DNA from: Bacillota bacterium
GTDB taxonomy: Bacteria; Bacillota; Sulfobacillia; Fermentithermobacillales; Fermentithermobacillaceae
Direction of reading: 5' to 3'
NCBI GenBank assembly: GCA_040880305.1
Contig: JBBDIP010000059.1
Location: 226 to 64,225 of the forward strand
DNA: 64,000 bases
Within the stretch, counting starts at the first letter, position 1; each line of letters opens with the position of its first letter. The translations under genes and the position numbers were made by a program. Of the stretch, positions 1,222 through 38,115 are shown piece by piece. The notes below the pieces were generated by a model that had not been told where the DNA came from, did not search any database, and worked only from the letters and a program-made list of their open reading frames with translations.

Positions 1222-1360
1222 TGCTGTCACCCCCGTCGCTTTTGCGTAGTGTTGTCCAATTGCGAGAAACTTTGCCTTTGCGGGTAGCGTTCTATATCTT
1301 CGCGGGTGATTCCTGCCGCCGGGGGACGGGGCTGTCGCCATGGCGACTTCAAATCACTCC

Positions 1361-1389
1361 TTGAACCTTGTCTCAAGCGGTGATAGATT
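1361..1389 (+). promoter_or_regulatory. candidate sigma-70-type promoter for guaA-pur operon
   Basis: TTGAAC (1361-1366), 17-nt spacer, TAGATT (1384-1389), about 65 nt upstream of the guaA ATG. Sequence match only. Confidence 0.3.
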
Positions 1390-1452
1390 CTAAGTAGAAT
1401 TGTTGCACGCAAGTCAAATCGGCACAATTGCGTACACAAAGAGGGTGTCCAC

Positions 1453-3009: not shown

Positions 3010-3039
3010 CCGCCAAGCCGAAGGAAAGGTGGTACCGGG

Positions 3040-4341
3040 ATGATACCCAGATACGCCAGGCCCGCTATGAGGAAGATCTGGAGCGAGGAAAACAAGTACG
3101 GGCGCTGGCTAGAGGTTGAGGTTCTGGCCCTGGAAGCCTGGGAGCGCCTAGGCGCTGTCCCGAAAGGGATCGCCGAAGCGGTCCGCGCCAAGGCCAAGGT
3201 CGATCCCAAGCGTATCGATGAGATCGAGGCCATAGTCAGGCACGACGTCATCGCGTTCGTGAGCCAGGTAGCCGAAACCGTCGGCGACGAGGGCAAGTAC
3301 ATTCACTTCGGACTCACCTCTTACGACGTCGTGGACACCGCTCTGTCGTCCCTGGTCAGAGAGTCTCTCCTTGTCATTATGGCGGACGTCCAGGCAATGG
3401 TCGATGTGTTGGGGTCATTGGCCCTGAAGTACAAGGACACCCCCATGATCGGACGTACGCACGGCGTCCACGCCGAACCCATCACCTTCGGCCTGCTCCT
3501 GGCCCGGTGGTATCAGGAGATGAAGCGGAACCTGGAGAGAGTCCAGGTCGCCATCGCGGAAATATCGGTGGGCAAGCTTTCCGGCGCCGTCGGCAACTAC
3601 GCCCATGTTGACCCATTTGTCGAGCGTTTCGTCTGCAAGCGGCTGGACCTTACTCCCGCGCCCGTCTCCAGCCAGGTGATCCAGCGCGACCGGCACGCGG
3701 CCGTGGTCTCGACTCTCGCGGTCGTCGCGGGGACCCTGGAGAAGATTGGCACCGACTTGCGCCATCTGGCCCGCACCGAGGTGCGGGAGGTCGAGGAGCC
3801 GTTCCGGACCGGCCAGAAGGGTTCGTCGGCGATGCCCCACAAGCGCAACCCCGTCGGCCTTGAGCAGATATGCGGGATGTCCAGACTGATGCGCGGATAC
3901 GCCGTCGCCGCCCTCGAGAACAACGCACTCTGGCACGAGCGCGACATCTCCAACTCGTCGGTAGAGAGGATTATCCTCCCCGACGCAACGACTCTCCTGG
4001 ACTACGCCCTTTCCCGGATGACCGGGATTCTCAAGGACATGAGGGTGTATCCCGATCGGATGCTCGCCAACCTCAACCTCACCGGAGGGCTGGTTTTCTC
4101 CGAGGAAGTCCTGCTGGCGCTGGTGGCGTCCGGGATGAGGAGGGAAGACGCGTACGCGATCGTCCAGCGGCTGGCAATGGCCTCTTGGGAGGGCGCTCCC
4201 ACGTTTAGGGAGAGGATCGCGGCGGAACCGGCTATCGTGAATGTCTTGGGTGAAGCGAAGATCGCGGCGTGTTTCGACCTGAAGCACGCCTTGGCCAGGG
4301 TGGACGATATCTTCAGACAAGCTGACCTACTAATCTCCTGA
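3040..4341 (+). CDS. purB: adenylosuccinate lyase
   Basis: 433 aa. N-terminus MIPRYARPAMRKIW and fumarate-lyase signature GSSAMPHKRNP. Confidence 0.95.
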   Translation: MIPRYARPAMRKIWSEENKYGRWLEVEVLALEAWERLGAVPKGIAEAVRAKAKVDPKRIDEIEAIVRHDVIAFVSQVAETVGDEGKYIHFGLTSYDVVDTALSSLVRESLLVIMADVQAMVDVLGSLALKYKDTPMIGRTHGVHAEPITFGLLLARWYQEMKRNLERVQVAIAEISVGKLSGAVGNYAHVDPFVERFVCKRLDLTPAPVSSQVIQRDRHAAVVSTLAVVAGTLEKIGTDLRHLARTEVREVEEPFRTGQKGSSAMPHKRNPVGLEQICGMSRLMRGYAVAALENNALWHERDISNSSVERIILPDATTLLDYALSRMTGILKDMRVYPDRMLANLNLTGGLVFSEEVLLALVASGMRREDAYAIVQRLAMASWEGAPTFRERIAAEPAIVNVLGEAKIAACFDLKHALARVDDIFRQADLLIS

Positions 4342-4362
4342 CACCGATCGAGGAGGGACACT

Positions 4363-5094
4363 GTGAGCGACCTAGTTGCAGGCAAAGACAAGCTCTACGA
4401 AGGCAAAGCTAAGGTTGTGTACCCTGGGGATCCCGGCGAAGTCTACATGGTCTTCAAGGACAGCGCGACCGCCTTCAACGGCGAGAAGAAGGGCACCATC
4501 AAGGGGAAGGGATTCTTCAACGCCCACATCTCCACCACGCTCTTCAAGTACCTTGAGAAACAGGGCGTACCCACCCACTTCATCTCACTGGCTGACGAAG
4601 TCACCATGAAGTGCAAGCGCCTCCGGATTTTCCCCATCGAGGTCGTGGTCCGCAACATCGTGGCCGGCAGTCTCTCCAAGAGGACAGGCAAGCCCGAGGG
4701 CGTCGACCTCCCGTTCCCAATCCTGGAGCTCTACTACAAGTCCGACGAGTTGGGCGACCCCCTCCTGAACGACGACCACATCCTGGCGTTCGGCTTCGCA
4801 GCCAAGGCAGAACTGGACCACCTGCGGGACGAAGCCAAGAGGATCAACGCTATCCTTATGCCGTTCTTCCGCGAGAGGGGCCTCCTGCTGGTGGACTTCA
4901 AACTTGAGTTCGGCCGGGTGGTCAGCGCCGACGGCTCCTTGGCACAGACCGTGCTGGGAGACGAGATTTCGCCCGATACCTGCCGGTTCTGGGACGCCAC
5001 TACCAGAGAGAAGTTGGACAAAGACAGGTTCCGCAGGGATCTCGGCGGGGTGGAGGAAGCCTACGCTGAGGTGCTGCGGAGGGTTAGCCAGTAA
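4363..5094 (+). CDS. purC: SAICAR synthase
   Basis: 243 aa, GTG start. LYEGKAKVVY.. N-terminus; sits between purB and purS. Confidence 0.93.
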   Translation: MSDLVAGKDKLYEGKAKVVYPGDPGEVYMVFKDSATAFNGEKKGTIKGKGFFNAHISTTLFKYLEKQGVPTHFISLADEVTMKCKRLRIFPIEVVVRNIVAGSLSKRTGKPEGVDLPFPILELYYKSDELGDPLLNDDHILAFGFAAKAELDHLRDEAKRINAILMPFFRERGLLLVDFKLEFGRVVSADGSLAQTVLGDEISPDTCRFWDATTREKLDKDRFRRDLGGVEEAYAEVLRRVSQ

Positions 5095-23850: not shown

Positions 23851-23941
23851 GCCCCTACAGCGACGCTCACGAGGCAGGAGATCCCCTCCACTGGCAGGAA
23901 ATAGCCCGTTGCCACATTTGCTAGAGACGGAGGTACATACT

Positions 23942-24748
23942 TTGAGAGTGTTCATTTCCGTGGACATGGAAGGCGTTTCCGGCGTGGTTGCCTGGCCGCA
24001 GACTGAGCGCGGCCAGGACGACTATGAACGCATGAGGAGGCTCATGACGCAGGAGGCCAACGCCGCGGTCGAAGGGGCTCTTGAAGCAGGAGCCACAGAC
24101 GTGCTGGTCAACGATTCCCACGGCGGGATGCGAAACCTTATCCTGGAGGACCTGCATCCCGACGCCCGGCTCATAACCGGCGATCGAAAACCCATGTCGA
24201 TGATGGAGGGCGTCGGCCCAGGCTTTGACGCGGTATTCCTAATCGGCTACCATTCCCAGGCTTCCTCGACCGGAGTCCTAAACCACACCTACACGACTCG
24301 CGTGGTCCATTACGCTGTCAACGGCAAGGTGATGGGGGAGACAGGGATGAACGCCCTCATCGCCGGGTTCCACGACGTCCCCGTGGTGTTGGTGAGCGGC
24401 GACTCGATCGTGACGGCCGAGGCCAAAGACCTGCTTGGCAACGTGGAAGGCGTGACGGTGAAGGAGCCCAGGAGCCAGTTCTCGGCTGCCTGCCTGCATC
24501 CCGTCAAGGCCCGGGCGCTCATCAAGGAGGCGGCAGTCAGGGCGCTCTCGGATCTGAGCAAGTACCGGCCGTTAAGACCGCCGACCCCCTCGACCGTGAG
24601 ACTGGTGTTCAACGCCTCGGGTCACGCTGACCTGGCATCCATAATGCCCGGAGCGGTCCGGGTGGACCCCCTCACCGTCGAGTTTACGGCGCCCGACTAC
24701 CTGACTGCCTACCGCGGCGCCAGGACCATGATGCACCTAACTTTCTAA
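23942..24748 (+). CDS. dppA: M55-family D-aminopeptidase
   Basis: 268 aa from TTG 23942 (RBS GGAGG 23929-23933): LRVFISVDMEGVSGV.., VNDSHGGMRN, IGYHS. Confidence 0.85.
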   Translation: MRVFISVDMEGVSGVVAWPQTERGQDDYERMRRLMTQEANAAVEGALEAGATDVLVNDSHGGMRNLILEDLHPDARLITGDRKPMSMMEGVGPGFDAVFLIGYHSQASSTGVLNHTYTTRVVHYAVNGKVMGETGMNALIAGFHDVPVVLVSGDSIVTAEAKDLLGNVEGVTVKEPRSQFSAACLHPVKARALIKEAAVRALSDLSKYRPLRPPTPSTVRLVFNASGHADLASIMPGAVRVDPLTVEFTAPDYLTAYRGARTMMHLTF

Positions 24749-25587
24749 GCAAAAGCGCCGCTGTCGCTCTGCTTTTGCCTAACACGCAACGACAAGTCCC
24801 CGGCGGAGAAGGCGCGCGTCTCTCCTCCGGGGATTTCCACAAGGGCCCGGCCATCGCGGTCGATTCCCCTGAAGATCCCCTGCTTTTCAAGTTGATCCGC
24901 CGCAGTTGTGTTGCGCACGACCACAATCTCGCCCAGGAATGCGCAATGCTCGTGGATCCACTGCGCGAGATGCGAGAGGCCATTTTGGAGGAAGTCCAGA
25001 TAAGATGCCTCGAGGCGGTTCAAGATGCCGGCGATGAGGTTGCTGCTATTCACGTCGCGCCCGGCGAGGGATTTCAGCGATGCCGCAGTCTCCGGCAAGT
25101 CGCAGGCGTCCACATTTGCGTTCACCCCTATCCCGACCACTACCTCCGCCAAAGGGCCAGATCCGGAGCGCATCTCGCAGAGGATTCCGCACACCTTCCG
25201 GTTGTCTACCAGGACGTCGTTGGGCCATTTGAGGCGCGCGTCGAGTCCCACGGCGCTCCTGATCTCGGCGGCCACGCAGTGCCCGGCCACCAGCGACAGC
25301 GCCGGGATCCTTTCGGGGGATATGGCGGGGCGGAGCACTGCTGACATGAAGATCCCGCCTGGCGGGGAGGACCACTGCCGGCCGATCCTGCCCTTTCCCC
25401 CGGACTGGGTCCCGGCTAGGAAGACCGTCCCTTCAGGGTAATCGGATCCCAGGCTCTTGGCGTCCTCGTTGGTGGAGACCGTCGAGGGGGCATAAAGGAT
25501 GGTCCGCCCAAGGAAGGAGGTCTCAAGGCCCGCTCTTATCGCGCGAGCCACAAGAGTGTCCGCGGTGTATCCGTCAGGGCAACGCAA
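24745..25587 (-). CDS. birA: biotin--[acetyl-CoA-carboxylase] ligase (group I, no HTH)
   Basis: 280 aa. ..STNEDA.., GTQSGGKGRIGRQWSSPPGG, KWPNDV. Confidence 0.85.
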   Translation of the reverse strand: MRCPDGYTADTLVARAIRAGLETSFLGRTILYAPSTVSTNEDAKSLGSDYPEGTVFLAGTQSGGKGRIGRQWSSPPGGIFMSAVLRPAISPERIPALSLVAGHCVAAEIRSAVGLDARLKWPNDVLVDNRKVCGILCEMRSGSGPLAEVVVGIGVNANVDACDLPETAASLKSLAGRDVNSSNLIAGILNRLEASYLDFLQNGLSHLAQWIHEHCAFLGEIVVVRNTTAADQLEKQGIFRGIDRDGRALVEIPGGETRAFSAGDLSLRVRQKQSDSGAFA

Positions 25588-26770
25588 TTTTGCCCATCAC
25601 CACTGCCTTTCTGGCTCCCGTGGCGGCCGGGGCGTTGTTGGGGTGGCCCGAAAGCAGCTCGTTTCCCAGGACTGCGAAAGCCAGCGCTTCTTTGGCTTGG
25701 TCCGGTATCCCCACGTCCTCGTGGCTCATCACCCGCGCCGGCGCCAGTTCCTGGCGTAGTCTGCGCATGAAGTAGGGGTTGCGTGCGCCGCCGCCGCCCA
25801 CGATGACCTCGTCCACAGGGCCTTTGGGGAAGATGAAGTCCCGGTACGCCTGAACAATGGACGCTACCGTGAGTTCCGACGCGGTGGCGATGAGGTCGCG
25901 TGGATCGAAGTTCGTGTCCGGGAGCAGTGTCCGCGCGTATTGGACCCCGAACTCCTCGCGACCGGTGGACTTGGGCGGCGGGAGACGAAAATACGGGTTA
26001 TCCAAGAGTCGCGTCAGCAACATGCGGTCAACCTTGCCTGCAAGGGCCATCCGGGCGTCCCGGTCCATGGTCTCCCGGCCGTGGGTAAGCAGCGAGGCCA
26101 GGGCGTCCACCACCATGTTCCCCGGGCCGGTGTCGAAGGCCACGATCTGGTCCAGTGAGCAGGAGGGCGGCAGGTAGGTGCAGTTGCCGATGCCTCCGAT
26201 GTTCTGGACCACGCGGCCGATGCCGGGGCGGGCCAGAAGGACGTAGTCCACGTAAGGGACCAGAGGCGCTCCTTGGCCGCCCTGAGCCATGTCGGCCGGG
26301 CGAAAGTCGCCGACGGTCAGGATTCCGGTGTTCTGTGCGATGACTGAGATATCGCCTACCTGCAGCGTCGCCCTCACGGGGAGGACGGGATGGTCGGGCC
26401 AGGGGAAGTGGACCAGCGTCTGCCCGTGGGATGAGATGGCGTCTACCTGGGACGGCGTTAAACCGGCCTCACGGATGCACTTGACGGCCGCTTCGGAGAA
26501 AACGTCGGCGATTAGGAAGTTAAGCCTGGCAACTTCCTCGGCATTCAGCTTGCGGAGGTCTCCAAGCAGCATTGACCGCACAGCCGGGGAATACTCGACG
26601 CTGGACATGTGGACTACCCGGGCCTGCAGGCCCACGCCGTGCCCTATCACCTCGCACAGCACGGCGTCGACGCCGTCGGCCGAGGTACCCGACATGAGGC
26701 CCACGATCAGCCTCTCGGACTTGTCTCTGACTCTATCCAAGATTCCGGTCACAATCACCTCTCCAGTCAT
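25574..26770 (-). CDS. anmK: anhydro-N-acetylmuramic acid kinase
   Basis: 398 aa. ..IVGLMSGTSADGVDAVL.. and NIGGIGN. The true start may be GTG 26752 (RBS GGAGAGG). Confidence 0.9.
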   Translation of the reverse strand: MTGEVIVTGILDRVRDKSERLIVGLMSGTSADGVDAVLCEVIGHGVGLQARVVHMSSVEYSPAVRSMLLGDLRKLNAEEVARLNFLIADVFSEAAVKCIREAGLTPSQVDAISSHGQTLVHFPWPDHPVLPVRATLQVGDISVIAQNTGILTVGDFRPADMAQGGQGAPLVPYVDYVLLARPGIGRVVQNIGGIGNCTYLPPSCSLDQIVAFDTGPGNMVVDALASLLTHGRETMDRDARMALAGKVDRMLLTRLLDNPYFRLPPPKSTGREEFGVQYARTLLPDTNFDPRDLIATASELTVASIVQAYRDFIFPKGPVDEVIVGGGGARNPYFMRRLRQELAPARVMSHEDVGIPDQAKEALAFAVLGNELLSGHPNNAPAATGARKAVVMGKIALP

Positions 26771-26802
26771 TCAAGCGCGACGGGAAGCAGCGCCTGTCGC
26801 GG

Positions 26803-28851
26803 CTATCTTATGGCCGCCACGGCTGCGTTTGCGAACCTCGGGCGCAGCCGGATGGTAGCGTTCGCCTCTCGGCCTGCGTGTACTCTGTTTGTGAGCAGGA
26901 TGACCGCGGTCCCCGTCTCGGGATCGCACCACAAGCTGGTACCGGTGAAACCTGTGTGTCCGAAGGATCTGGGCGAAATCAGGTCGCCGCCGGAAGAGAA
27001 GCGGCGCGGCTTGAGCATCCAGCCCAGCCCCCTGCGTTCTCCCGCCGAAGTCTCCTCAGTGATGGCTGCCGCTACGCAAGACCTGCTCAGAACGTGGACC
27101 CCTTGCCACTCCCCCTGCCCGAGCCACATGAGAGCGTAGCGCGCCACATCCTCCACTGTGCTGAAGAGTCCGGCGTGCCCGGCCACTCCGCCAAGCGCGA
27201 GGGCGTTCTCATCGTGCACCTCGCCCCACATGACCCGGCCGAGGTCGGGGCGATACTCGGTCGCAGCGATCTTGTTCCGCCTATCCGGCGAAGGGAGGAA
27301 GCCGGTGTCGGCCATGCCTAGCGGGCCGAAGACTTCTTTGGCCGCGAACTTGTCGACAGTCGAACCCGTGGTGCGCAGGAGCACTTCGGCCAAGATGATG
27401 AAGCCGAGGTCGCTGTAGACGACCTCTTTGCCCGGCTCTGCCCCCTGGGCGAGACCGAGTCCCGAGATGAACTTCACGATCTCCTCGCCTCGCAGGCCTT
27501 GTTCCCAGAACTTGATGTGCCCCGGGAGGCCCGAAGTGTGAGTCAGGAGGTGCCGCAGAGTGATACGCTCCTTACCGCCTGAGGCGAATTCGGGTATGAA
27601 CACGGCGACAGGGTCGTCCAGTCTGAAAAGCCCGCGCTCGCAGGCGATTAGCACCGACGGCGTGGTGGCCAGGACCTTGGTCAAGCTCGCCATGTCGAAC
27701 ACGGTGAACGGCGTGGCCGGTATCCTCTCGGGGGTGCGCACGGCCCAGCCGAAAGCCCTGGGCCCGACCACAGTACCGTTATGCACGATGGCAGCCACGG
27801 CGCCCGGTATGTCGCCCTCCCCGTCGCCGACTGCCGTTCCCACAACTCCGAAAGCCCGTTCGACCTGGACCTCATCCAGGCCGGCTTCTCCGGCCGACCC
27901 AAAGCGCAGCCTCGGAGACGGCGTCAGCATCTGCGGAGCCGAAGGCAGCGGGGCAACGCCAAGAGCCGCCTCGCGGATAGCCCCGCGGTGCTTCTCCAGC
28001 GTACCGGCGGCTTCGTCCACGGGGATCCCCCTCCGAAGCGAAACCAGCGCCACGCCGATATCGCCTTTGGAGGCTGTGAAAGCTGCCTCGACCTCGCCGG
28101 CAGTCTTTTCGGTGGCTTCAATCAGGATCCTTCGGGCTCGCCCCGACAGTTTGATGTTTTTGGGGCTGGTGCCGGCCATGAGGTTTGAGTAAGTCCGTCC
28201 GGCCATAATCATGCCTGCTGTGGATATCATGTTGAGGACCAATTTCTGCGCGGTGCCGTTCTTCATCCTGGTTGAACCGGCGATGACCTCAGGGCCAACA
28301 TCGGGGGCGATGACCAATTCAGCCGACGCCGCCACCATCCCTGAAGCGTCTCCGACAAGGGCGACTGTCGTGGCACCCATCTCGCGTGCGGCTTGTAGCG
28401 CGCCGACAACGAACGGGGTGCTGCCCGATGAGGCGATGCCGACCACGACGTCCCCGGTCCCGGCCTCTTCCTGCGATATCGCCTCACGACCGGCGGGGAT
28501 GCTGTCTTCGGCCCCTTCCACGGCCTTGAAAACCGCTCCTGAACCTCCCGAGATTAGAGCCACGAACCTCTTGCCTGCAGCGCCGTATGTAGGCTCTATC
28601 TCCGAGGCGTCAAGCACCCCCAGCCTGCCGCTGGTGCCGGAGCCTAAGTAGAACACCCTCTTACCGCCCTTGATGGCTGCCGCCACCATCTCAACGGCCC
28701 GGGCGATGTTTTGGACTTCGCGGCCCACGGCCGGGGCCACCCTGTGGTCCTCGGCGTTGATGGCCTCGACGATCCTGATCGCCGGCCAGGTGTCGATGTC
28801 CCGCGTCAACGGGTTTACGGCCTCGGTCTTGGGCAAGTTCTGTCTGTCCAT
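26803..28851 (-). CDS. murQ: fusion: N-acetylmuramic acid 6-phosphate etherase (MurQ) + class-C beta-lactamase-fold serine hydrolase (AmiE-like)
   Basis: 682 aa. The N-terminal ~300 aa form a SIS etherase (NPLTRDID.., GSGTSGRLG, STRMK). The C-terminal ~380 aa carry SLTK (SxxK), YSD and GHTGFTGT motifs. Confidence 0.85.
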   Translation of the reverse strand: MDRQNLPKTEAVNPLTRDIDTWPAIRIVEAINAEDHRVAPAVGREVQNIARAVEMVAAAIKGGKRVFYLGSGTSGRLGVLDASEIEPTYGAAGKRFVALISGGSGAVFKAVEGAEDSIPAGREAISQEEAGTGDVVVGIASSGSTPFVVGALQAAREMGATTVALVGDASGMVAASAELVIAPDVGPEVIAGSTRMKNGTAQKLVLNMISTAGMIMAGRTYSNLMAGTSPKNIKLSGRARRILIEATEKTAGEVEAAFTASKGDIGVALVSLRRGIPVDEAAGTLEKHRGAIREAALGVAPLPSAPQMLTPSPRLRFGSAGEAGLDEVQVERAFGVVGTAVGDGEGDIPGAVAAIVHNGTVVGPRAFGWAVRTPERIPATPFTVFDMASLTKVLATTPSVLIACERGLFRLDDPVAVFIPEFASGGKERITLRHLLTHTSGLPGHIKFWEQGLRGEEIVKFISGLGLAQGAEPGKEVVYSDLGFIILAEVLLRTTGSTVDKFAAKEVFGPLGMADTGFLPSPDRRNKIAATEYRPDLGRVMWGEVHDENALALGGVAGHAGLFSTVEDVARYALMWLGQGEWQGVHVLSRSCVAAAITEETSAGERRGLGWMLKPRRFSSGGDLISPRSFGHTGFTGTSLWCDPETGTAVILLTNRVHAGREANATIRLRPRFANAAVAAIR

Positions 28852-29234
28852 GAGATAACCCCCACGTACCGATGATTAGCTGTAGATAAGGAATCGCCTT
28901 CGCTCGGACAGGAAGTCCCGGGATTGACTCCGCCAGTTCGGTTTCAAGCCCGCCTATGGGGTTGGGGCGGTCAAGCACGACAAAGGCGACCTTTGACCGG
29001 GAGGCCGGTCAGTTGATCCCGTCCCCCGCCTGCGGGTTCGCCCTCCCTAAGGTCGCCGTCGATGCCGTGTTCAGGCGAAAATAGAGCCTTGACGCGGTAC
29101 CCGCTTCGCAACATGAGATCCACGTTGCGCGAGAGGTCCTCGCCAAGGCCCGTGTGGTTGGTGATGAGACCTATGGTTTCCTGCCTGTGTAACCCTCGTT
29201 CAAGAAGCCTTTGGAGACCGGTCTTGACGGTCAA
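28852..29234 (-). pseudogene. namZ: decayed exo-beta-N-acetylmuramidase (DUF1343/NamZ) gene
   Basis: RBS GAAGGAGAG and a TTG start are intact. MTVKTGLQRL..GLITNHTGLGEDL..ALFSPEHGIDGD..TGLPV then jumps out of frame to KVAFVVLDRPNPIGG..IPGLPVR and ends. About 75 aa are missing internally, along with the C-terminal half. Confidence 0.7.
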
Positions 29235-29283: not shown

Positions 29284-29832
29284 CTACCTGATGTCCCTGC
29301 CTCCAAGGCCGGCAGTCACGCTCTTGGGCAGCCCCTTCAGGAGGGCGTATGACAAGACGGTGTTGAGGCCGGCGTGGATCAGGTTGAAAGGGATGATGAT
29401 GGGGACGATCATCCCCGCTACCACCGCCCTTGGGGCGCCCGTGTAGATAGGGGTGACAACCAGGTTGAGCGGCACCATGAGGGCGACTCTGGTGAGGATG
29501 CCTGCCATCATGGAAACGTGCAGTTGGCTGCTCTTCTTCCAGAGGTAACCGATCACCAGCGCCATGCCGCCTGACGCCACGAAGTGCATGAAGGCTCCCC
29601 ACGGGCCGCCTTGCCCCGTCAGCACGACGAACAAGGTAGCGTTCACGAACGCCACCGCGGCTCCAGCGATGGGCCCCACTACCACGGCCGCGACGATGAT
29701 GGGCAGGTCGCCCGGAGAATAGAGCAAGAAGGGCGCGGCTGCCATCACGGGAAAATGGACGAACACCTCAAGGATCAAGGACATTCCCGCGAGGATTCCG
29801 GCGAGGACTAACGGCAGATGCTTTCGGTTCAT
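29284..29832 (-). CDS. ribU: riboflavin ECF transporter S component
   Basis: 182 aa from ATG 29832 (RBS GGGGGAG). Polytopic membrane protein directly downstream of an FMN riboswitch. Confidence 0.8.
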   Translation of the reverse strand: MNRKHLPLVLAGILAGMSLILEVFVHFPVMAAAPFLLYSPGDLPIIVAAVVVGPIAGAAVAFVNATLFVVLTGQGGPWGAFMHFVASGGMALVIGYLWKKSSQLHVSMMAGILTRVALMVPLNLVVTPIYTGAPRAVVAGMIVPIIIPFNLIHAGLNTVLSYALLKGLPKSVTAGLGGRDIR

Positions 29833-29885
29833 TTGGACTCCCCCTCGATAACATGCAGGGGGATCCCCGGGGGGGACACGTTCTT

Positions 29886-30030
29886 CCTGATCTTCTCCCA
29901 TCCGGACTTTACCGTCGGCCCCGGAATTCCACCGGGTCAGTCGCGCATCGGCGCGAGTCGCGGGCTATAGCCGCCGGTCAGGATTGGCGACCTTAGGCCG
30001 CTTCACCTTGCCCCGAAGATCCTCTCCAAC
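29886..30030 (-). promoter_or_regulatory. FMN riboswitch (RFN element)
   Basis: Minus strand reads GAUCUUCGGGGCAAGGUGAA..UCCUGACCGGCGGCUAUAGCCCGCGA..CCCGGUGGAAUUCCGGGGCCGACGGUAAAGUCCGGAUGGGAGAAGAUC. This matches the conserved RFN core blocks. Downstream, CCCCCU (29857-29862) can pair with the ribU SD AGGGGG (29838-45). Confidence 0.93.
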
Positions 30031-30654: not shown

Positions 30655-30884
30655 ACGCGTTCCACCCCCCCTCAGGGTAACCCGCGCGCCGCTTGGTGTG
30701 CAAGACTTGATAATCGGAAAACCATACATCCCCGATGCAGGACTTCAGGTGTCAGCGCAGAAACATGCAACTGGAACAAGGTTCAGACGAAGGCCAATGT
30801 TCTCTCAACCGCTCATCTCCGGAGGTGGTCTATGACGCCGCGGTCCGCTTTACGTTCACGGATTCGTGAAGGAGGTGCGAAGTA

Positions 30885-31658
30885 ATGTTCATCGCGGGAA
30901 GAGTGGCGGGCCTATTTACGGTCGTAGCCGCCATGGTATTCACTTTGGTTGGACTAAGTCTGGCCCGCAAGCGGCCATTCCACATGCGCGCCATCCCCGG
31001 CCTCAAAGCAGTAGAGGAAGCGGTAGGCCGCGCGACTGAGATGGGCAAGCCCATCTTCTACAGCCCCGGATACGCCGACGTAGCCGGCACCACCGCTCCG
31101 CCGACCCTAGCGGGCCTGAACCTTCTGGCTCACGTGGGGCGATTGGCGGCCAGGTACAATACCCGGCTTGTGACCACAGTCGGCCACGCGAATACGTATG
31201 CACTGGCGACCGAGATCCTGAGGAATGCCTACGTCGTTGAAGGCAAGGTCGACAGTTTCGACATCGGGAACGTGTACTTCACATCCGAAGTCCAGTTCGC
31301 CTTCACCGCAGCAAGCGTCGGGCTCATCCAGCGCGAGAAACCGGCCACGGCGTTCCTCACCGGGTATTTCGCCGCCGAAGCCATAGTCCTCGCCGAGGCC
31401 ACAGCCGCTACCAATTCGCTTTCCATCTCGGGCACCACGAACTATTTCCAGATTCCTTTCTTTATGGCCGCCTGCGACTACACCATGATAGGCGAGGAAT
31501 TCCTGGCCGCCGGCGCCTTCATCTCCAATGATCCAGACCTTATTGGAAGTATCGCGGGACAGGACTACGTCAAGATTGTGGCGATCTTTGCGCTGCTCCT
31601 GGGCGCCGTCCTAAAGAGCTTCGGAAACGACGCTATTCTTAACCTGCTTAAGCGCTAG
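30885..31658 (+). CDS. uncharacterised membrane-anchored protein (cluster protein 1)
   Basis: 257 aa, RBS GAAGGAGGTG. N-terminal TM helix, ~200-aa soluble region (..GKPIFYSPGYADVAG..), C-terminal hydrophobic helix. No family recognised. Confidence 0.75.
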   Translation: MFIAGRVAGLFTVVAAMVFTLVGLSLARKRPFHMRAIPGLKAVEEAVGRATEMGKPIFYSPGYADVAGTTAPPTLAGLNLLAHVGRLAARYNTRLVTTVGHANTYALATEILRNAYVVEGKVDSFDIGNVYFTSEVQFAFTAASVGLIQREKPATAFLTGYFAAEAIVLAEATAATNSLSISGTTNYFQIPFFMAACDYTMIGEEFLAAGAFISNDPDLIGSIAGQDYVKIVAIFALLLGAVLKSFGNDAILNLLKR

Positions 31659-31673
31659 GGAGGGGGGAGCGAA

Positions 31674-32297
31674 ATGAAAAGGATTCTTCCGGTTTTGGTT
31701 TCGGCCGTGGTCGGACTGATACTCCTGGCGGACTACTTTCTGAAAGTCCCCATCCTAAAGCAGCCGGCCACCGAGATCCAGGACTGGGGCTTGATCGTGT
31801 CGGCCTTCGCTCTGGCGCTGGCGGCGGTCAACCTCTTGCGGATTCACGCAAAGAGGATCGTGAGAAAGGACCGCCAGAGCGTCCACAGCGGCATTTTGAT
31901 CGCGGCGCTCCTGGTCACGGCCTTCTCCGGGATCTTCATGGGTACGACGTCCAAAGTCTTCAAGTTCATCTTCGATTCGACTTTCACGCCGCTGGCCGCG
32001 GTGTTCTACGCCATGACGGCGTTCCATCTGGCCTCGGCCTCCTACCGGGCCTTTCGGGCCAAAAACCTCCAGGCCGTGGCCCTTCTGCTCTCAGGCGTCC
32101 TCTTGATGCTTGGCCGGGCGCCCATCGGCGAGGTCATCTGGAAGGGGTTCCCGACCGTGGCTGACTGGATCGTCAATGTGGTCAACCTGGCCGGGTCTCG
32201 CGGCATCCTCATCAGCACGGCCGTTGGAACAGTAGGCGCGGGCCTCCGCATCCTCGCTGGAATCGACCGCTCCCATCTGGGCAGCGGTGCTGAGTAA
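31674..32297 (+). CDS. uncharacterised polytopic membrane protein (cluster protein 2)
   Basis: 207 aa, RBS GGGAGGGGGGAG. About 5-6 hydrophobic helices. Starts 15 nt after protein 1. Confidence 0.75.
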   Translation: MKRILPVLVSAVVGLILLADYFLKVPILKQPATEIQDWGLIVSAFALALAAVNLLRIHAKRIVRKDRQSVHSGILIAALLVTAFSGIFMGTTSKVFKFIFDSTFTPLAAVFYAMTAFHLASASYRAFRAKNLQAVALLLSGVLLMLGRAPIGEVIWKGFPTVADWIVNVVNLAGSRGILISTAVGTVGAGLRILAGIDRSHLGSGAE

Positions 32298-32309
32298 GGA
32301 GGGAAAAAC

Positions 32310-33140
32310 GTGAAAACCCTAGAAAGGCTCGGTCGGATCGACAGCAGGGTGATCTACGCCCTCCTGATCGTTGCTCTCCTTCTGCCGCTTATGAACCCGA
32401 TCGGACTTCCCATTAGCGTTGGCAAGCACACCACGCGGTCGTTCGGAGTGCTGGACCAGCTTCAATCCGGCGACAAGATCATCATGGACGTGGGCTACTC
32501 CGTCTCAGGCGCAGCCGACGTCGAGCCGCAGACCGTCGCGATCCTGAAGCACCTCTTCGGCAAGGGCGTCCGCATCATCTTCACCGGCAACCAAACCGAA
32601 GGGCCCATGGTCACCGAGAGACTGGTTGCTCCCTACGAGGCGGCCGGCAAGAAGTACGGGGTCGACTTCGTGAACCTGGGATACCTGGCCGGCGGAGAGA
32701 ACGCCATCGCGTCCTACTGCCGGGACCTGAAGAAGTCGTACCCGGTGGATTTCCGCAAGAACTCCACGTCGGATCTGCCGCTCCTGGATGACGTGAACGG
32801 AGCTGCAGACGTGAAAATGTTCGTGTTCTTCACCACCCAGAACTCGGACATGTACGTCCGTCAGGTCACCCAGTTCAAGATCCCCATAGTGGGCGGCCTC
32901 ATCAACACGATCTCACCCCAGGCTGAGCCCTACGTCAACGCAGGACAGCTCGCCGGTATCCTGGTCGGGCTTCGCGGCGGCGCTGAGTACGAGATGCTCA
33001 TGAATTCCCCTGGGCAGGGCGTCGCAAGCATGGACGCGCAGAGCATGGGGCACCTCCTCATCATCGTGTTCATCGCCATCGCCAATCTCTCGTACCTGGC
33101 GAGCAAAAAGGCCACGGCTAAGAAGGGGGGAGCACAGTGA
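32310..33140 (+). CDS. uncharacterised bitopic membrane protein (cluster protein 3)
   Basis: 276 aa, GTG start, RBS AAGGAGGG. TM helix at each end flanking a ~220-aa soluble domain. Confidence 0.75.
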   Translation: MKTLERLGRIDSRVIYALLIVALLLPLMNPIGLPISVGKHTTRSFGVLDQLQSGDKIIMDVGYSVSGAADVEPQTVAILKHLFGKGVRIIFTGNQTEGPMVTERLVAPYEAAGKKYGVDFVNLGYLAGGENAIASYCRDLKKSYPVDFRKNSTSDLPLLDDVNGAADVKMFVFFTTQNSDMYVRQVTQFKIPIVGGLINTISPQAEPYVNAGQLAGILVGLRGGAEYEMLMNSPGQGVASMDAQSMGHLLIIVFIAIANLSYLASKKATAKKGGAQ

Positions 33141-33745
33141 CCAGCGATCCCGTAATCTGGATCTCTTCGATACTGACAGTCATCGGATTCTCCTACCTGT
33201 TCAAGGAGAATGAGTTCTACAGGGCGGTTGAGCACCTGTACGTAGGCGTCGCCGCCGGATACACCGTGGTCATGGGGTACACCAACGTGGTCAACAAGGT
33301 GTGGGGACCCCTCACCAAGAAGTCGCAGTACTCAGTGCTTATCCCCGCGGTCCTTGGGTTCCTCCTGTTCATGCCCTACATCTCGCGGTCCCTGGGATGG
33401 CTTCGAAGACTTCCGGTGGCCGTCATCGTCGCGATTGGCGGGGCTTTGGCTCTTAGGACCGCCGTGGTCGAGCAGTTCATCGGTCAGCTCCGTTCCACCA
33501 TAATCCCCCTAAACAGCATCAACAACATCATCATCGTGCTGGGTGTTGCCGTCACGCTTACCTACTTCATCTTCACGGTCAAACCGAACCCAGTGATGAA
33601 GGTCGGTGTTGAAAGCGGCAAGTGGGTCATAATGGTAACTCTAGGGGCGGCTTTCGGATCGGGCATCATGGGGCGCATCTCGCTCCTCATCGGCAGGCTG
33701 TTTCTGGTGTTCCGAGATTGGATCCCGCTCATCCCCAAGACCTAG
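33137..33745 (+). CDS. uncharacterised polytopic membrane protein (cluster protein 4)
   Basis: 202 aa, GTG start overlapping the protein-3 stop by 4 nt, RBS GAAGGGGGGAG. About 6 hydrophobic helices. Confidence 0.75.
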   Translation: MTSDPVIWISSILTVIGFSYLFKENEFYRAVEHLYVGVAAGYTVVMGYTNVVNKVWGPLTKKSQYSVLIPAVLGFLLFMPYISRSLGWLRRLPVAVIVAIGGALALRTAVVEQFIGQLRSTIIPLNSINNIIIVLGVAVTLTYFIFTVKPNPVMKVGVESGKWVIMVTLGAAFGSGIMGRISLLIGRLFLVFRDWIPLIPKT

Positions 33746-33783
33746 CAGGAAGGCAAGTAAGGCCTAATAGGGAGGGCTTTTCG

Positions 33784-34656
33784 TTGAGGAGACGACCGAT
33801 CGGCTCTTTGCGTACTGCTGCGAGCGAGCCAAGGATGCCGGAGGCTAGCGGGACAGAGGCCGCCGGGATAGAGGCTGTTGGGACGAAGGCTGGCGGAGCG
33901 GGGACGCTTCCCAAGAGGCTTTACCTCTATGATATGACATGGCCTGAAGTTAAGACGGCGCTGCCTGGCGTGAAGGTGGCTATCATCCCGACCGGCTCAA
34001 CGGAGCAGCACGGTCCCCACGGGACATTCGAGGTCGACACCGCTCGTGCCAGGGAGTTTTCGCTGAGGCTGGCGGACCGGGTGTACCCGAGCGCGCTGGT
34101 CACACCTTGCGTGCACTTCGGAATATCCCCGCATCACATGCACTTCCCGGGCACCATCTCGCTCACGGCTGAGACCTTCACCCAGGTCCTCATGGACGTG
34201 GCGCGGTCCTTGTACCAACACGGCATCCGCAGGTTCTTGTTCGTGAACGGGCACGGAGGCAACCGGCCCGCTCTAACCATCGCGATGAACCGGCTACGGC
34301 ACGAGTTGGGCGTCCGGGCGGCAGTAGCCTCGCCGACCACGGTGGCGGCCGACATCATCAAGGAGCGGGTCTCCTCGCCCATCACCGGACACGCTTGCGA
34401 GAGCGAGATGTCACAGGTCCTCTACCTGTACCCGCAGGCGATGAAGAAGGAGAGAGCCGAGAAGGGCAAGATCCGCGAAGAAATCCAGGCCTCCTACGGC
34501 AAACTGGCCGTGGAGGAGGGCCGTTTCTGGGAAGAACTCACCGAGAACGGCGCTCTCGGCGACGCGACGCTTGCCACTGCGGAACTGGGCAAGGAAGTCA
34601 TCGAGGTCGCCCTGGACCGGCTCACGGAGTTTCTCAGAAGGTTCATGGAGAGCTAG
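33784..34656 (+). CDS. creatininase-family amidohydrolase (second copy)
   Basis: TTG 33784 follows RBS AGGGAGGG (alternative ATG 33835). ..IIPTGSTEQHGPHGTFEVD.., FLFVNGHGGN, GHACESEMS. Confidence 0.85.
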   Translation: MRRRPIGSLRTAASEPRMPEASGTEAAGIEAVGTKAGGAGTLPKRLYLYDMTWPEVKTALPGVKVAIIPTGSTEQHGPHGTFEVDTARAREFSLRLADRVYPSALVTPCVHFGISPHHMHFPGTISLTAETFTQVLMDVARSLYQHGIRRFLFVNGHGGNRPALTIAMNRLRHELGVRAAVASPTTVAADIIKERVSSPITGHACESEMSQVLYLYPQAMKKERAEKGKIREEIQASYGKLAVEEGRFWEELTENGALGDATLATAELGKEVIEVALDRLTEFLRRFMES

Positions 34657-34718
34657 AGCGGGAGCCAGAGCGCGCGAACCAAAGCAGAAGAACCAAAGCG
34701 CGGGAAGCAATTTGGTGG

Positions 34719-34755
34719 GCTGCCCTGCCTTGCGGCGGGGCAGCTTTGCTCTGTT
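34719..34755 (+). terminator. candidate terminator after the creatininase-family gene
   Basis: GCTGCCC-12nt-GGGCAGC hairpin followed by a T-rich CTTTGCTCTGTT; weak U-tract. Confidence 0.45.
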
Positions 34756-34873
34756 GCCCAGCCTGCCGCATTCGGTTATCCTGTTACTGGTGTTGTATGC
34801 GCAGCATATCCTCGCGGCGGGACGCCGGTTCCGCGGACGCAACCAAATCCTTTCACTGGAGAGGGTCTTCTGA

Positions 34874-35665
34874 TTGAAGATAGTCGCGCTGATGAAGCAA
34901 GTCCCCGGCACGAGCGATGTCGCTATCGACCCCGAGAGGGGCACTCTCCGGCGTGAGGGCGTCGCTGTCAAGACTAACCCGTATGACCTGCATGCTCTTG
35001 AAGCCGCCTTGGATGTGAGGGACAAGCTGACCGACGGATCAACGGTTTCGGTGGTCAGCATGGGTCCGCCACAGGCGGAGGCCGTTATCCGTGAGTCCTA
35101 CTGGATGGGAGCGGACGGCGGCGCGCTCATGACCGACAGGGCTTTTGCCGGCGCCGACACCCTGGCCACGGCGTTTGCCTTGAGTCAGGCCCTTAAGAAG
35201 CAGGGTTTTGACCTCATCGTGGCCGGGATGCAGTCCACCGACGGCGATACCGCCCAGGTAGGCCCGGGCGTGGCCGAGTTTTTGGGGATCCCCCACGTTT
35301 CCTATGTCCGATCCATCGACGCGGTGAGACCGGACCGGATCGAAGTCACCGCAGACCTTGGGGACCGCTACCTTTCTCAGGAAGTGCAGCTTCCGTGCCT
35401 TATCACTGTAACCAAGGACATAAACCAGCCCAGGCTGCCGTCTTTCCGCAAGCGCAAGGAGACCGCCGGGAGGGCAGTGGATATTGTGAAAGCAGCCGAT
35501 CTTCCTCCCTCGGATGAGCAACACCTGGGTCTGGCCGGGTCTCCCACACGGGTGGAGAAGATTTTCCCGCCCAAGAGGGAGCGCGTGCGAGAAGTATGGG
35601 AAGGCCCTTCAGTCGAACTTGCCGGGCGCTTGGCCACCCTCCTGAAGGAGGTGCTGGAGCCTTGA
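34874..35665 (+). CDS. etfB: electron transfer flavoprotein beta subunit
   Basis: 263 aa, TTG start, RBS GGAGAGGG. MKIVALMKQVPGTSDV..NPYDLHALEAAL. Confidence 0.9.
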   Translation: MKIVALMKQVPGTSDVAIDPERGTLRREGVAVKTNPYDLHALEAALDVRDKLTDGSTVSVVSMGPPQAEAVIRESYWMGADGGALMTDRAFAGADTLATAFALSQALKKQGFDLIVAGMQSTDGDTAQVGPGVAEFLGIPHVSYVRSIDAVRPDRIEVTADLGDRYLSQEVQLPCLITVTKDINQPRLPSFRKRKETAGRAVDIVKAADLPPSDEQHLGLAGSPTRVEKIFPPKRERVREVWEGPSVELAGRLATLLKEVLEP

Positions 35666-36690
35666 GTGAAGCAGCAAACCTGGACAGGAAGGCCTGGAAA
35701 GGCGTCATGGTGTTCGCCGAGTCACACGAAGGACGGTTTGAGCCGGTCACCTTCGAACTCATTGGCAAGGCCCGAGAACTGGCCGACAAGACCGGGCAGG
35801 ACGTTATCTGCGTGGCCGTCGGCCACCCTCTGAGTGATATCACGGGCGACCTCCTGCACTACCCGGTGGACCGGGTTTTGGCATACGACGCGCCCGAGTT
35901 CCAGCACTTCGTGGCAGGAGTCTACGCGGCGGCCCTTGAGGACGCCGTACTCCTTGAAAGACCTAGCGTGGTGTTGATAGGCGCGACGCCGGTCGGCAGG
36001 AGCCTGGCGCCAAGAGTGGCGGTGCGGTTCAGGACCGGGCTTACGGCTGACTGCACGGTCTTGGACATCCGCCCCAACGGCGATCTGGTGCAGACCAGAC
36101 CCGCCTTCGGCGGCAACATAATGGCAACTATCGTGACTCGGAACGCCCGACCCCAGATGGCCACAGTCCGGCACAAGGTGATGCCGAGGGCCGAGAGGTT
36201 GGAGGCGCCCCGAGGCGCTCTGCTCCCCAAGAGCATAGCCGCCCCGCAGGCTCTGGCAGGATTCACCCGCCACCTGGCCGCGGTCCGCGTAAAGTCTGAG
36301 ACCTCGCTCCCCAAAGCCGAATCCATTTCCGATGCCAAGGTCATCGTGGCCTGTGGCAGAGGTATCCGTGCGAAGGAAGACCTTCAGATGTTCGAGGAAC
36401 TCGCCGACCGGTTGGGCGGAGTTCTGGCAGGGTCGAGGCCGCTGGTTGAGAAGGGTTGGCTGCCGGCTGCAAGGCAGGTTGGGCAGAGCGGACGGACAGT
36501 CCGTCCCGACCTATATATTGCCTGCGGCATCTCCGGAGCGATCCAGCATGTAGCAGGCATGTCGGGCAGCACGACCGTGGTAGCCATCAACCAGGATAAG
36601 GACGCCCCGATCTTCGAGACGGCCAACTACGCTTTGGTGGGCGACATGTATGAGATAGTAGGCGAACTCCTCAAAACCGGTGGTGCTTAA
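35662..36690 (+). CDS. etfA: electron transfer flavoprotein alpha subunit
   Basis: 342 aa from TTG 35662 (RBS GAAGGAGGTG, overlaps the etfB stop). ..KGVMVFAESHEG.., C-terminal FAD motif ..YIACGISGAIQHVAGM... Confidence 0.9.
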   Translation: MSEAANLDRKAWKGVMVFAESHEGRFEPVTFELIGKARELADKTGQDVICVAVGHPLSDITGDLLHYPVDRVLAYDAPEFQHFVAGVYAAALEDAVLLERPSVVLIGATPVGRSLAPRVAVRFRTGLTADCTVLDIRPNGDLVQTRPAFGGNIMATIVTRNARPQMATVRHKVMPRAERLEAPRGALLPKSIAAPQALAGFTRHLAAVRVKSETSLPKAESISDAKVIVACGRGIRAKEDLQMFEELADRLGGVLAGSRPLVEKGWLPAARQVGQSGRTVRPDLYIACGISGAIQHVAGMSGSTTVVAINQDKDAPIFETANYALVGDMYEIVGELLKTGGA

Positions 36691-38115
36691 GTGGTGCTTA
36701 AGATGAGCGCAGGCGGATTTGCCAGGTGTACCGCGAAGGACCTTGATGAGCTCCGAGGGATCTGCGGGGATGACGCGGTCATCGCGGGCGGACCTCTTCT
36801 CGAGGACTATACCCACGACGAGATGGTCGCCGTCAGGAGCTATCCTGACGGCGTGGTATTCCCAAAGGATACGGAGCAGGTTTCTCGCGTGATGCAGTTC
36901 GCGTCGTCGCGGCACATCGCGGTCACGCCCAGGGGAGCAGGCACTGGCCTCTGTGGAGGCGCGGTGCCGGTCGAAGGCGGGATCGTCCTTTGCCTTTCTC
37001 GAATGTCCGCGATATTGGAGATAGACAGGGAGAACCTTACCGCCACCGTCGAGTCGGGAGTGATGCTTATGTCGATCCACCAGGCGGTGGAGGCTCAGGG
37101 ATTCCTCTATGCCCCTGACCCCGGCGAGAAGACCGCCACCATTGGCGGCAACGTCAACACCAACGCCGGCGGGATGCGCGCCATCAAGTACGGCGTGACC
37201 AGGGACAACATCCGCGGCTTGGAAGTGGTCATGCCGTCGGGCGAGGTCCTTGAGATGGGCGGGAAACACGCCAAGAACAGCACCGGATACAGTCTCATGA
37301 GCTCTTTCATCGGCAGCGAGGGGACCCTGGGCATCGTGACCCGGGCGACCCTCAAGCTGTTCCCGCTGCCCAGGCAGACCCTTAGCCTGCTGGTACCCTT
37401 CAACTCTCTGGGGGACGCCATCCGGACAGTCCCCAGGATACTGGCCACGGGCATTTTGCCCCAGTCCATCGAGTTCGCCGAGAAGGGCGTCATCGAGGCT
37501 TCCGAAAGGTACCTGGGGAAGCGGTTCCCTCACGCTTCCGCCCCCTCATACCTCCTCTTGAGGGTGGACGGCAATTCGCCGGCGGAAGTCTCGTCCGCCA
37601 TGGACCTTGTCGGCGACGCCTGCCTGACCGCGGGAGCGGTTGACGTCCTCATCGCCGACAGTCCCGAGCGGCAATCCGCCATCTGGGACGGCCGCGCGGC
37701 CTTCCTAGCGGCTCTAAAGAGCGGTAACGAGGTGGATGAGTGCGACGTCGTCCTGCCCAGGAACCGGATCGCCGAATTGGTGGAGTACACCAAGGAGGTC
37801 TCCGTGGCTGTGGGAGTCAGGATCGAGAGTTTCGGTCACGCGGGGGACGGCAACCTGCACATTTACGTTCTCCGGGACGGCATGTCCACCGGGGACTGGG
37901 AGCGCAAGCTGCCGAAGGCGATGGATCTTCTCTACGAGAAGGGCGACGCCCTCGGTGGCCTGGTGTCGGGCGAGCACGGGATCGGGCTGGCGAAGAGGAA
38001 GTACATGGCGCGGAACCTTTCCGCCGGTGAACTGGCGCTTATGTTGCGCCTCAAGAAGACGTTCGACCCGGAAGGCATCCTGAACCCTGGAAAAGTGGTG
38101 CTAGAATCATCTTAA
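36691..38115 (+). CDS. FAD-linked oxidase (GlcD / D-lactate dehydrogenase LctD-like)
   Basis: 474 aa. FAD_binding_4-type N-terminus (..VTPRGAGTGLCGGAVP..), C-terminal GEHGIGLAKRKY. The start may be ATG 36703, because GTG 36691 lies inside an 11-bp tandem duplication. Confidence 0.85.
   Translation: MVLKMSAGGFARCTAKDLDELRGICGDDAVIAGGPLLEDYTHDEMVAVRSYPDGVVFPKDTEQVSRVMQFASSRHIAVTPRGAGTGLCGGAVPVEGGIVLCLSRMSAILEIDRENLTATVESGVMLMSIHQAVEAQGFLYAPDPGEKTATIGGNVNTNAGGMRAIKYGVTRDNIRGLEVVMPSGEVLEMGGKHAKNSTGYSLMSSFIGSEGTLGIVTRATLKLFPLPRQTLSLLVPFNSLGDAIRTVPRILATGILPQSIEFAEKGVIEASERYLGKRFPHASAPSYLLLRVDGNSPAEVSSAMDLVGDACLTAGAVDVLIADSPERQSAIWDGRAAFLAALKSGNEVDECDVVLPRNRIAELVEYTKEVSVAVGVRIESFGHAGDGNLHIYVLRDGMSTGDWERKLPKAMDLLYEKGDALGGLVSGEHGIGLAKRKYMARNLSAGELALMLRLKKTFDPEGILNPGKVVLESS

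Follow-up and report, generated by a model that had tools for sequence, protein, structure and literature searches.

We asked what a run of four genes for unnamed membrane proteins, followed by a gene of the creatininase family, encodes in a Bacillota genome (family Fermentithermobacillaceae). The genes lie at positions 30885 to 34656 of a 64,000-nucleotide (nt) stretch of contig JBBDIP010000059.1, hereafter called the window. A first-pass annotation, made from the sequence alone, had read the four proteins as a hetero-oligomeric membrane machine, possibly an uptake system for the substrate of the neighboring hydrolase. Our analysis indicates that the four proteins, here called P1 to P4 and together the cassette, very probably form one complex, and that none of them has a characterized homolog by sequence. 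We give an even chance to the reading that this four-subunit membrane complex imports amide or peptide-like substrates for an adjacent cytoplasmic hydrolase. The five genes, with the lengths of the four cassette open reading frames (ORFs), are as follows.

30885-31658, plus strand: P1 gene, ATG start, ORF of 257 amino acids
31674-32297, plus strand: P2 gene, ATG start, ORF of 207 amino acids
32310-33140, plus strand: P3 gene, GTG start, ORF of 276 amino acids
33137-33745, plus strand: P4 gene, GTG start, ORF of 202 amino acids
33784..34656, plus strand: creatininase-family gene, the fifth gene, with its start at TTG 33784 or ATG 33835

On re-reading, the four ORFs and their spacing were exactly as first described, with 15 nt between P1 and P2, 12 nt between P2 and P3, and a 4-nt GTGA overlap (a gap of -4 nt) between P3 and P4. 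Homologs at 40 to 96% identity run to thousands, and thus the four genes are not chance ORFs.

We compared the proteins with Pfam and NCBIfam to place them in known families. P1 belongs over its full length to Pfam DUF6754 (PF20539; 250.8 bits against a cut-off of 27, E = 1.5e-74, profile positions 10-254 of 257), a domain of unknown function that covers one of the four subunits and is carried by every listed P1 homolog. P2, P3, and P4 matched no family in Pfam or NCBIfam, and 31 diverse homologs of P2 and 31 of P4, scanned against Pfam, returned nothing beyond scattered noise. The first-pass annotation had recognized no characterized family motif in the four proteins. This is correct for P2, P3, and P4, while P1 belongs to a catalogued family that is itself uncharacterized, and a literature search on DUF6754 (PF20539) found no paper. 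P1 has more than 3,245 homologs and P4 more than 5,320, the latter nearly all unnamed or called "hypothetical protein," and the P3 family at 50% identity comprised 5,242 clusters (E<=1e-3) or 4,087 clusters (E<=1e-10). The window P3 is 100% identical to NCBI protein WD024_08200, whose source is a Bacillota metagenome-assembled genome.

Profile searches of PDB sequences with P1, P2, P3, and P4 returned nothing credible. The ATP-binding cassette (ABC) ATPase model ABC_tran (PF00005) matched none of the five proteins in searches of Pfam and NCBIfam at E<=1. The P1 segment GRATEMGKP is not a P-loop, since it sits before strand 1, in the order helix-loop-strand. Models of the tripartite ATP-independent periplasmic (TRAP) transporters (DctQ, DctM, and DctP), the tripartite tricarboxylate transporters (TTT; TctA, TctB, and TctC), and the major facilitator superfamily (MFS) matched neither P1 to P4 nor the 31 homologs each of P2 and P4. 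An anti-phage defense system was considered and rejected, as PADLOC models gave no match for the five proteins at E<=0.01. DUF6754 is the only Pfam or NCBIfam model that the cassette matches above cut-off, in agreement with the earlier view that it lies outside the ABC, energy-coupling factor (ECF), TRAP, and MFS designs. No subunit has a characterized homolog by sequence, and P1 and P3, the two that were modeled, have none by fold either. We could not place the system in any known kind.

We examined gene order in a locus set made up of the best-scoring 80 of at least 594 places matched by the P1 profile in one-genome-per-species data. The ORFs of the fetched loci are naive longest-ORF calls, with some starts and neighbors approximate, and P2, P3, and P4 were located among them by iterated hidden Markov model searches. 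Cassettes occur in more than ten bacterial phyla, mostly uncultured. The 80 loci span Bacillota (Fermentithermobacillaceae and a metagenome-assembled genome of Symbiobacterium thermophilum, a cultured species whose cassette was found in that type of genome only), WOR-3, Sumerlaeota/BRC1, Stahlbacteria, Eisenbacteria, Marinimicrobia, Poribacteria, Zixibacteria, Edwardsbacteria, Vulcanimicrobiota, and others. P2 is present in 75 of the 80 loci, P3 in 71, and P4 in 68; where present, P2 directly follows P1 and P4 directly follows P3. The first-pass annotation had asked whether the four genes keep their order in other genomes, and the order P1-P2-P3-P4 on one strand never varies wherever the DNA suffices. 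Twelve loci lack one or more members, and those that were checked stop at a contig end.

Spacing is tight throughout, with median gaps of 10 nt (P1-P2), 1 nt (P2-P3), and 0 nt (P3-P4) across 75 cassettes and start/stop overlaps in 24 of the 75 at P2-P3 and 28 at P3-P4. Whole cassettes are repeated in tandem, in two to three copies, in nine loci. Strict order, tight gaps, start/stop overlaps, and tandem duplication are strong comparative evidence that the four genes encode a co-translated hetero-oligomer, as the first-pass annotation had proposed. From the invariant synteny, the tight spacing, and the duplication as a unit, we infer that P1 to P4 probably assemble physically, and our confidence that they form one complex is high.

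The subunits differ in how fast they diverge. With all four compared over one set of 76 cassettes, mean pairwise identity is 46.4% for P1, 40.8% for P2, 40.3% for P4, and 35.5% for P3, and P3 is the most divergent subunit in five of seven tandem paralog pairs. Single genomes carry several divergent paralogous cassettes. A second paralogous P1-P4 cassette (L087 1321-4183), with a P3 55% identical to that of the window, comes from the same sequencing run, SRR27977663. Its P3 (P0165) carries the locus tag prefix WD024, as does the window P3, and its contig ends right after P4.

We next consider the structure of the subunits. By hydropathy analysis, P1 and P3 have two hydrophobic helices apiece, one N-terminal and one C-terminal, whereas P2 and P4 each have five to six. 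AlphaFold2 models of P1 and P3, built from alignments of 76 to 78 sequences, had predicted local distance difference test scores of 92.9 and 92.6 and predicted template modeling scores of 0.87 and 0.86, respectively. The P1 model consists of a membrane helix (residues 7-29), a six-stranded Rossmann-like alpha/beta domain (38-214), and a long C-terminal membrane helix (217-245). The P3 model has an N-terminal tail, a membrane helix, a six-stranded Rossmann-like alpha/beta domain (39-231), and again a long C-terminal membrane helix. Hydropathy and AlphaFold2 agree on the common layout that had been noticed in P1 and P3, and P2 and P4 are polytopic proteins of about 200 amino acids, also as described, with about six helices each; the N terminus of P2 is predicted to lie inside. 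The suggestion that P1 and P3 might be distant paralogs found no support in the sequences, for which hhalign gave a probability of 0.3%, and their domains probably lie on opposite membrane faces. Paralogy of P2 and P4 was undetectable by profile comparison (hhalign probability 1.3%).

Foldseek comparison of the P1 model with the PDB gave nothing at E<1e-3; all matches had E>=0.02 and a query-normalized template modeling score (TM-score) of 0.38 or less, the best of these weak matches being a LOG-like molybdenum cofactor carrier (2iz5), an RCK domain (2aej), and DprA. The P3 model gave only generic Rossmann-like matches to the PDB, also with query-normalized TM-scores of 0.38 or less, including eIF2B, halves of GT-B glycosyltransferases, and vWA-type domains. 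The profile and Foldseek checks that the first-pass annotation had recommended gave no family for any of the four proteins, and no fold for the P1 and P3 models, with an assigned function.

To orient the subunits, we used positive-inside statistics (lysine plus arginine, K+R) over 76 cassettes. In P1, K+R is 1.0 before helix 1, 4.0 after it, and 0.4 in the C-terminal tail; in P3, it is 3.2 in the N-terminal tail and 3.1 in the C-terminal tail. P1 carries N-terminal FN3-type (periplasmic-type) extensions in many other phyla, and one P3 relative (P0360, 460 amino acids) carries a CxxC-type double zinc ribbon at its N terminus. Based on this K+R bias and these domain fusions, the domains of P1 and P3 are probably on opposite membrane faces. 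P1 is predicted to have its N terminus outside, its domain in the cytoplasm, and its C terminus outside, and P3 is predicted to have its N terminus inside, its domain extracytoplasmic, and its C terminus inside. This arrangement suggests that the C terminus of P1 and the N terminus of P2 lie on opposite sides of the membrane.

Other long relatives carry extensions of different kinds. In P3 relative P0340 (472 amino acids), a beta-rich tail of low complexity extends the C terminus by about 190 amino acids past the last membrane helix. We considered subunit fusions among the long P3 relatives and rejected them, as P0340 and P0360 are fused to the low-complexity tail and the zinc ribbon, not to P2 or P4. 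Two P1 homologs have long N-terminal extensions before DUF6754: about 550 amino acids in L023 1087-3489, without a Pfam match, and about 445 amino acids in L032 6660-8774, with FN3 and GH85_C-like matches.

Conserved residues are found in both domain-bearing subunits and in P2. In P1, the invariant motifs are GRATEMGKP, ACDYT, and QD..K at the base of the last helix, with many invariant charged residues; the invariants include G62, G160, E165, G183, Q189, C197-D198-Y199, G203, and E205, several of them at the C-terminal ends of beta strands. P2 has an invariant arginine-rich motif, AYRAFRAR, within the conserved ASxAYRAFRAR. In P3, the invariant polar residues D242, S245, H248, and N259 lie in and just before the last helix, and D11, R13, and Y16 are invariant in the N-terminal tail.

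The neighbors of the cassette bear on what the complex may do. The fifth gene of the window is a full-length match to PF02633 (Creatininase; 234.2 bits against a cut-off of 31.3, E = 1.9e-69), which agrees with the earlier family call. It falls under the NCBIfam equivalog cut-offs for MftE (TIGR03964, 132.9 of 172 bits), creatininase (TIGR04448, 102.2 of 235 bits), and IolN (89.1 of 245 bits), and its best PDB match is 3no4 (E = 8.5e-26). No signal peptide was found on the protein. A creatininase-family gene lies beside the cassette in eight of eight sampled contexts at 61% P1 identity or more, in one of them (L094) one gene removed. Its position varies: it lies 3' of P4 in the window, L001/L091, and L088, 5' of P1 in L002 and L092/L093, and on both sides of the cassette in L081-L083. 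All other neighbors vary among these eight contexts (CRISPR, McrBC, two-component systems, and others), with RpiR-type regulators upstream in L081-L083 and L088. Over the 80 loci of the whole family, only 2 show the creatininase link. The first-pass annotation had asked whether the hydrolase gene is a conserved neighbor: it is so within the clade at about 61% P1 identity or more, and not across the family. In this lineage, we propose that the creatininase-family gene is co-transcribed with the genes of the complex.

Other amide hydrolases stand beside more distant Bacillota cassettes, on the same strand: an amidase with an alpha/beta (DLH/S9-type) hydrolase in L095 and L096, Amidohydro_1 with a trypsin-like protease in L097, and M20 peptidases in L004 and L009. 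In L084, the gene 12 nt upstream of P1 encodes a class A beta-lactamase-like SxxK protein that has no signal peptide. In all, the same-strand amide hydrolase partners have at least five different folds, and the three that were checked all lack a signal peptide. Counted over the 60 nearest neighbors in 21 Bacillota-type loci, the Pfam families that occur most often are Amidohydro_1/3, M20, and creatininase, with single cases of GGT, M42, and M14. Beside the Fermentithermobacillus-like cassette of L088, positions 496-4661 hold a membrane gene set of Gly_rich_SFCGS, DUF4312, DUF4311, and DUF4310, followed by SelA-like and KDGP-aldolase genes.

In Bacillota, the uptake idea draws comparative support from these same-strand amide hydrolases of different folds immediately next to the cassette; transport itself and the roles of the subunits are inferred. 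In the proposed mechanism, P2 and P4, with about six helices each, would form the membrane core and translocation path. The external Rossmann-like domain of P3, anchored by a helix at each end, would act as the substrate receptor, and the conserved cytoplasmic Rossmann-like domain of P1, anchored in the same way, could serve as a substrate-independent coupling or regulatory module. In the lineage of the window, the complex would import an amide or peptide-like compound that is cleaved by the cytoplasmic creatininase-family amidohydrolase. No ATPase is encoded in the cassette, and thus we propose an ion gradient as the default energy source. The pattern of divergence appears transporter-like by analogy with binding-protein-dependent importers, in that external P3 diverges fastest and cytoplasmic P1 slowest. 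More tentatively, and with somewhat less than even confidence, the cassette may be the founding example of a previously unrecognized class of multi-subunit solute importers, unrelated to ABC, ECF, TRAP, TTT, and MFS systems, in which a GlmL/MutL-type ATPase may energize or regulate transport in some lineages.

Several observations weigh against an importer. No homology to transport proteins was found for the four subunits, and no transport-protein fold for the P1 and P3 models. The single Rossmann-like lobe of P3 differs from the two-lobed classical solute-binding fold, and no energy-coupling component was identified in the cassette. The invariant charged residues of P1 and its invariant Cys-Asp-Tyr would also suit an enzyme. 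The hydrolase enrichment consists of raw counts. Finally, the neighbors outside Bacillota are not catabolic, and those that recur would suit a housekeeping machine as well as a transporter.

These recurrent neighbors would fit a different kind of complex, the main rival reading, one that does not import nutrients but serves, for example, envelope biogenesis, scaffolding, or trans-membrane signaling, with the Bacillota hydrolases as secondary acquisitions. P3 would then have a sensing or active role on the outer side, with P1 relaying to cytoplasmic partners or recruiting them, a GlmL/MutL-family actin-fold ATPase for example. Recurrence across phyla is limited to three partners, namely a GlmL/MutL-family ASKHA ATPase, a barrel-sandwich/KOW protein, and a small membrane protein, found in 17 of the 80 loci in shuffled positions (upstream, downstream, or divergent); the other non-Bacillota neighbors recur within single lineages only. 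Genes for these partners are at L029 4338-7846 and in L006, L012, L022, L023, L028, L030, L037, L043, L046, L055, L057, L058, L067, L068, L072, and L080. The ATPase, of about 606 amino acids, matches PF13941 (E = 4e-124), falls under the NCBIfam GlmL cut-offs, and extends about 140 amino acids past the MutL domain; a literature search on GlmL/MutL found nothing relevant. The barrel-sandwich/KOW protein, of 375 amino acids, is highly conserved at 59% mean column identity and has no Pfam family of its own and no PDB relative. A housekeeping role would also fit the invariant cytoplasmic motif of P3 (D11, R13, and Y16), which could dock a partner, the periplasmic FN3 extensions on P1 in many phyla, and the presence of at least two full tandem cassettes and the start of a third in a WOR-3 genome of 2.3 Mb (L070). 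However, three features are more typical of uptake systems than of a single housekeeping machine: genomes with several diverged paralogous cassettes, an external subunit that diverges fastest, and amide hydrolases of at least five folds that pair repeatedly with the cassette on the same strand. The window itself contains none of the three recurrent partners, the GlmL-like gene included. We regard a housekeeping machine as possible and rather unlikely.

An enzyme is less probable again, and we consider it improbable that the four proteins are a membrane-anchored enzyme complex in the pathway of the adjacent hydrolase, with the P1 domain catalytic or cofactor-binding and P2 to P4 anchoring it or supplying a membrane-bound substrate. 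The invariants of P1 are dense, and several lie at the C-terminal ends of beta strands, where Rossmann-like folds bind ligands; the weak fold neighbors 2iz5, 2aej, and DprA are themselves ligand-binding Rossmann domains. Yet P1 matches no enzyme family by sequence or fold, given the Foldseek values above, and lacks a nucleotide-binding glycine motif, and an enzyme would leave the conserved external P3 domain and two polytopic subunits unexplained. Least probable of all, and in our view very unlikely, is a highly divergent form of a known transporter, for example with P2 and P4 as ECF S-component-like proteins energized by shared modules encoded elsewhere. P2 and P4 match S components in size and in number of helices, and P2 has a weak match to ECF_trnsprt (PF12822; 15.3 bits, E = 0.021). 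That score is half of the 30.7-bit cut-off, with equally weak unrelated matches alongside, and a weak match recurs in only 3 of 31 P2 homologs, so we rejected P2 as an S component and treat the match as noise. P4 and its 31 homologs matched no S-component model (PF12822 or PF07155), and PDB profile searches with P2 and P4 found nothing. EcfT is not among the listed neighbor families of the 80 loci, ABC ATPases are rare nearby (3 of 106 downstream neighbors, none among the listed upstream families), and ECF systems contain nothing equivalent to P1 or P3.

The proposed importer can be compared with systems of known design. It resembles ABC and ECF importers by functional analogy only, as a multi-subunit system with two polytopic subunits, a fast-diverging external subunit, a most conserved cytoplasmic subunit, and a place in operons with catabolic enzymes. 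It differs from them in having no ABC ATPase, Walker motifs, EcfT, or above-threshold S component, and in that the external domain of P3 is a single lobe anchored by two membrane helices rather than a binding protein with two lobes. With the TRAP and TTT systems (DctQMP and TctABC), it would share ATPase-free, multi-component uptake with a small membrane subunit and an external receptor. However, the cassette has no DctQ, DctM, DctP, or TctABC match and no 12-helix large subunit, and its cytoplasmic-domain subunit P1 is extra, with no TRAP or TTT counterpart.

Operons that join a transporter to an amidohydrolase include abgABT (AbgT with M20 hydrolases) and creatininase clusters with NCS1 or BCCT permeases. 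As in abgABT-type operons, a membrane uptake component would be encoded beside a cytoplasmic amide hydrolase, but here the membrane part is four unrelated, unclassified proteins rather than one known permease. PilM-PilN-PilO represents the inner-membrane platform type. The likeness lies in one- to two-helix proteins with external alpha/beta domains, accompanied by an ASKHA ATPase (in the 17 of 80 loci), and in the conserved short cytoplasmic motif at the N terminus of P3. The cassette differs in having no sequence or fold match to these proteins and no linked pilus or secretin genes, and its partner ATPase is of the GlmL/MutL family, not PilM/FtsA.

If the importer reading is true, a large protein system, with about 5,000 clusters at 50% identity per subunit, has escaped annotation entirely, and the few known designs of membrane transport could gain a new architecture. 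An assigned role, in transport or otherwise, would replace the label "hypothetical protein" on four genes per cassette in thousands of genomes, many of which come from uncultured, environmentally abundant lineages. The variable hydrolase partners offer direct experimental handles on substrates.

The expression signals of the five genes were read from the window. They comprise the following features.

30870-30875, plus strand: P1 Shine-Dalgarno sequence AGGAGG, 9 nt 5' of the ATG
31659-31663, plus strand: P2 Shine-Dalgarno sequence GGAGG, as read in the sequence
32298-32303, plus strand: P3 Shine-Dalgarno sequence GGAGGG, as read in the sequence
~33125-33132, plus strand: P4 Shine-Dalgarno sequence GGGGGGAG, a less canonical purine run, as read in the sequence
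34719..34755, plus strand: terminator-like hairpin with a 12-bp G+C-rich stem (~34719-34745), a TTGC loop, and the tail CTTTGCTCTGTT

The strong GGAGG-type ribosome-binding sites that had been claimed for all four cassette genes are present for P1, P2, and P3 and not for P4. The TTG at 33784, taken by the first-pass annotation as the start of the creatininase-family gene, lies 38 nt past P4 with GGGAGGG 7 nt upstream. A public gene call places the start at the ATG at 33835, and thus the start is ambiguous. The hairpin reported after this gene is there, with a folding energy of -40.3 kcal/mol over 34700-34775 (z-score -2.0), but its U-tract is weak. It is the first terminator-like site 3' of the five genes, and none was found inside 30885-34656. 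We recognized no promoter-like site on the plus strand in the 155-nt intergenic region upstream of P1 (30730-30884) and no riboswitch before P1, Rfam giving no match there at E<=1.

The surroundings of the operon in the window contain the following genes and elements.

23909-24748, plus strand: M55 D-aminopeptidase
25574-26770, minus strand: AnmK
26803-28851, minus strand: MurQ-like SIS domain fused to a serine beta-lactamase/penicillin-binding protein-like domain, 682 amino acids, an unusual fusion
28971-29234, minus strand: NamZ N-terminal fragment, 87 amino acids, truncated and unusual
29284-29901, minus strand: ECF-type riboflavin S component (RibU-like)
29886-30024, minus strand: flavin mononucleotide (FMN) riboswitch, RF00050, 98.1 bits
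30076-30729, minus strand: divergent Cys-rich ORF of 217 amino acids (CGDLCGAKCC...), with no family match in Pfam or NCBIfam
34874-38115, plus strand: EtfB, EtfA, and an FAD-linked oxidase (GlcD/D-lactate dehydrogenase type), past the terminator

The FMN riboswitch was considered as a control element for P1 and rejected, as it lies directly upstream of the divergent RibU-like gene, to which it belongs. The RibU-like gene is a unit separate from the operon, and its longest ORF probably overextends into the riboswitch. The 217-amino-acid gene was rejected as an accessory of the cassette, having no family and not being conserved beside other cassettes. The region 23909-29234 looks like a peptidoglycan-recycling cluster, which includes the M55 peptidase, AnmK, the SIS-domain fusion, and the NamZ fragment. 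Electron-bifurcating lactate dehydrogenase complexes are encoded by just such a set of EtfB, EtfA, and FAD-linked oxidase genes. D-Lactate is released by MurQ, and thus the Etf and oxidase genes may be linked to the upstream genes for N-acetylmuramic acid (MurNAc).

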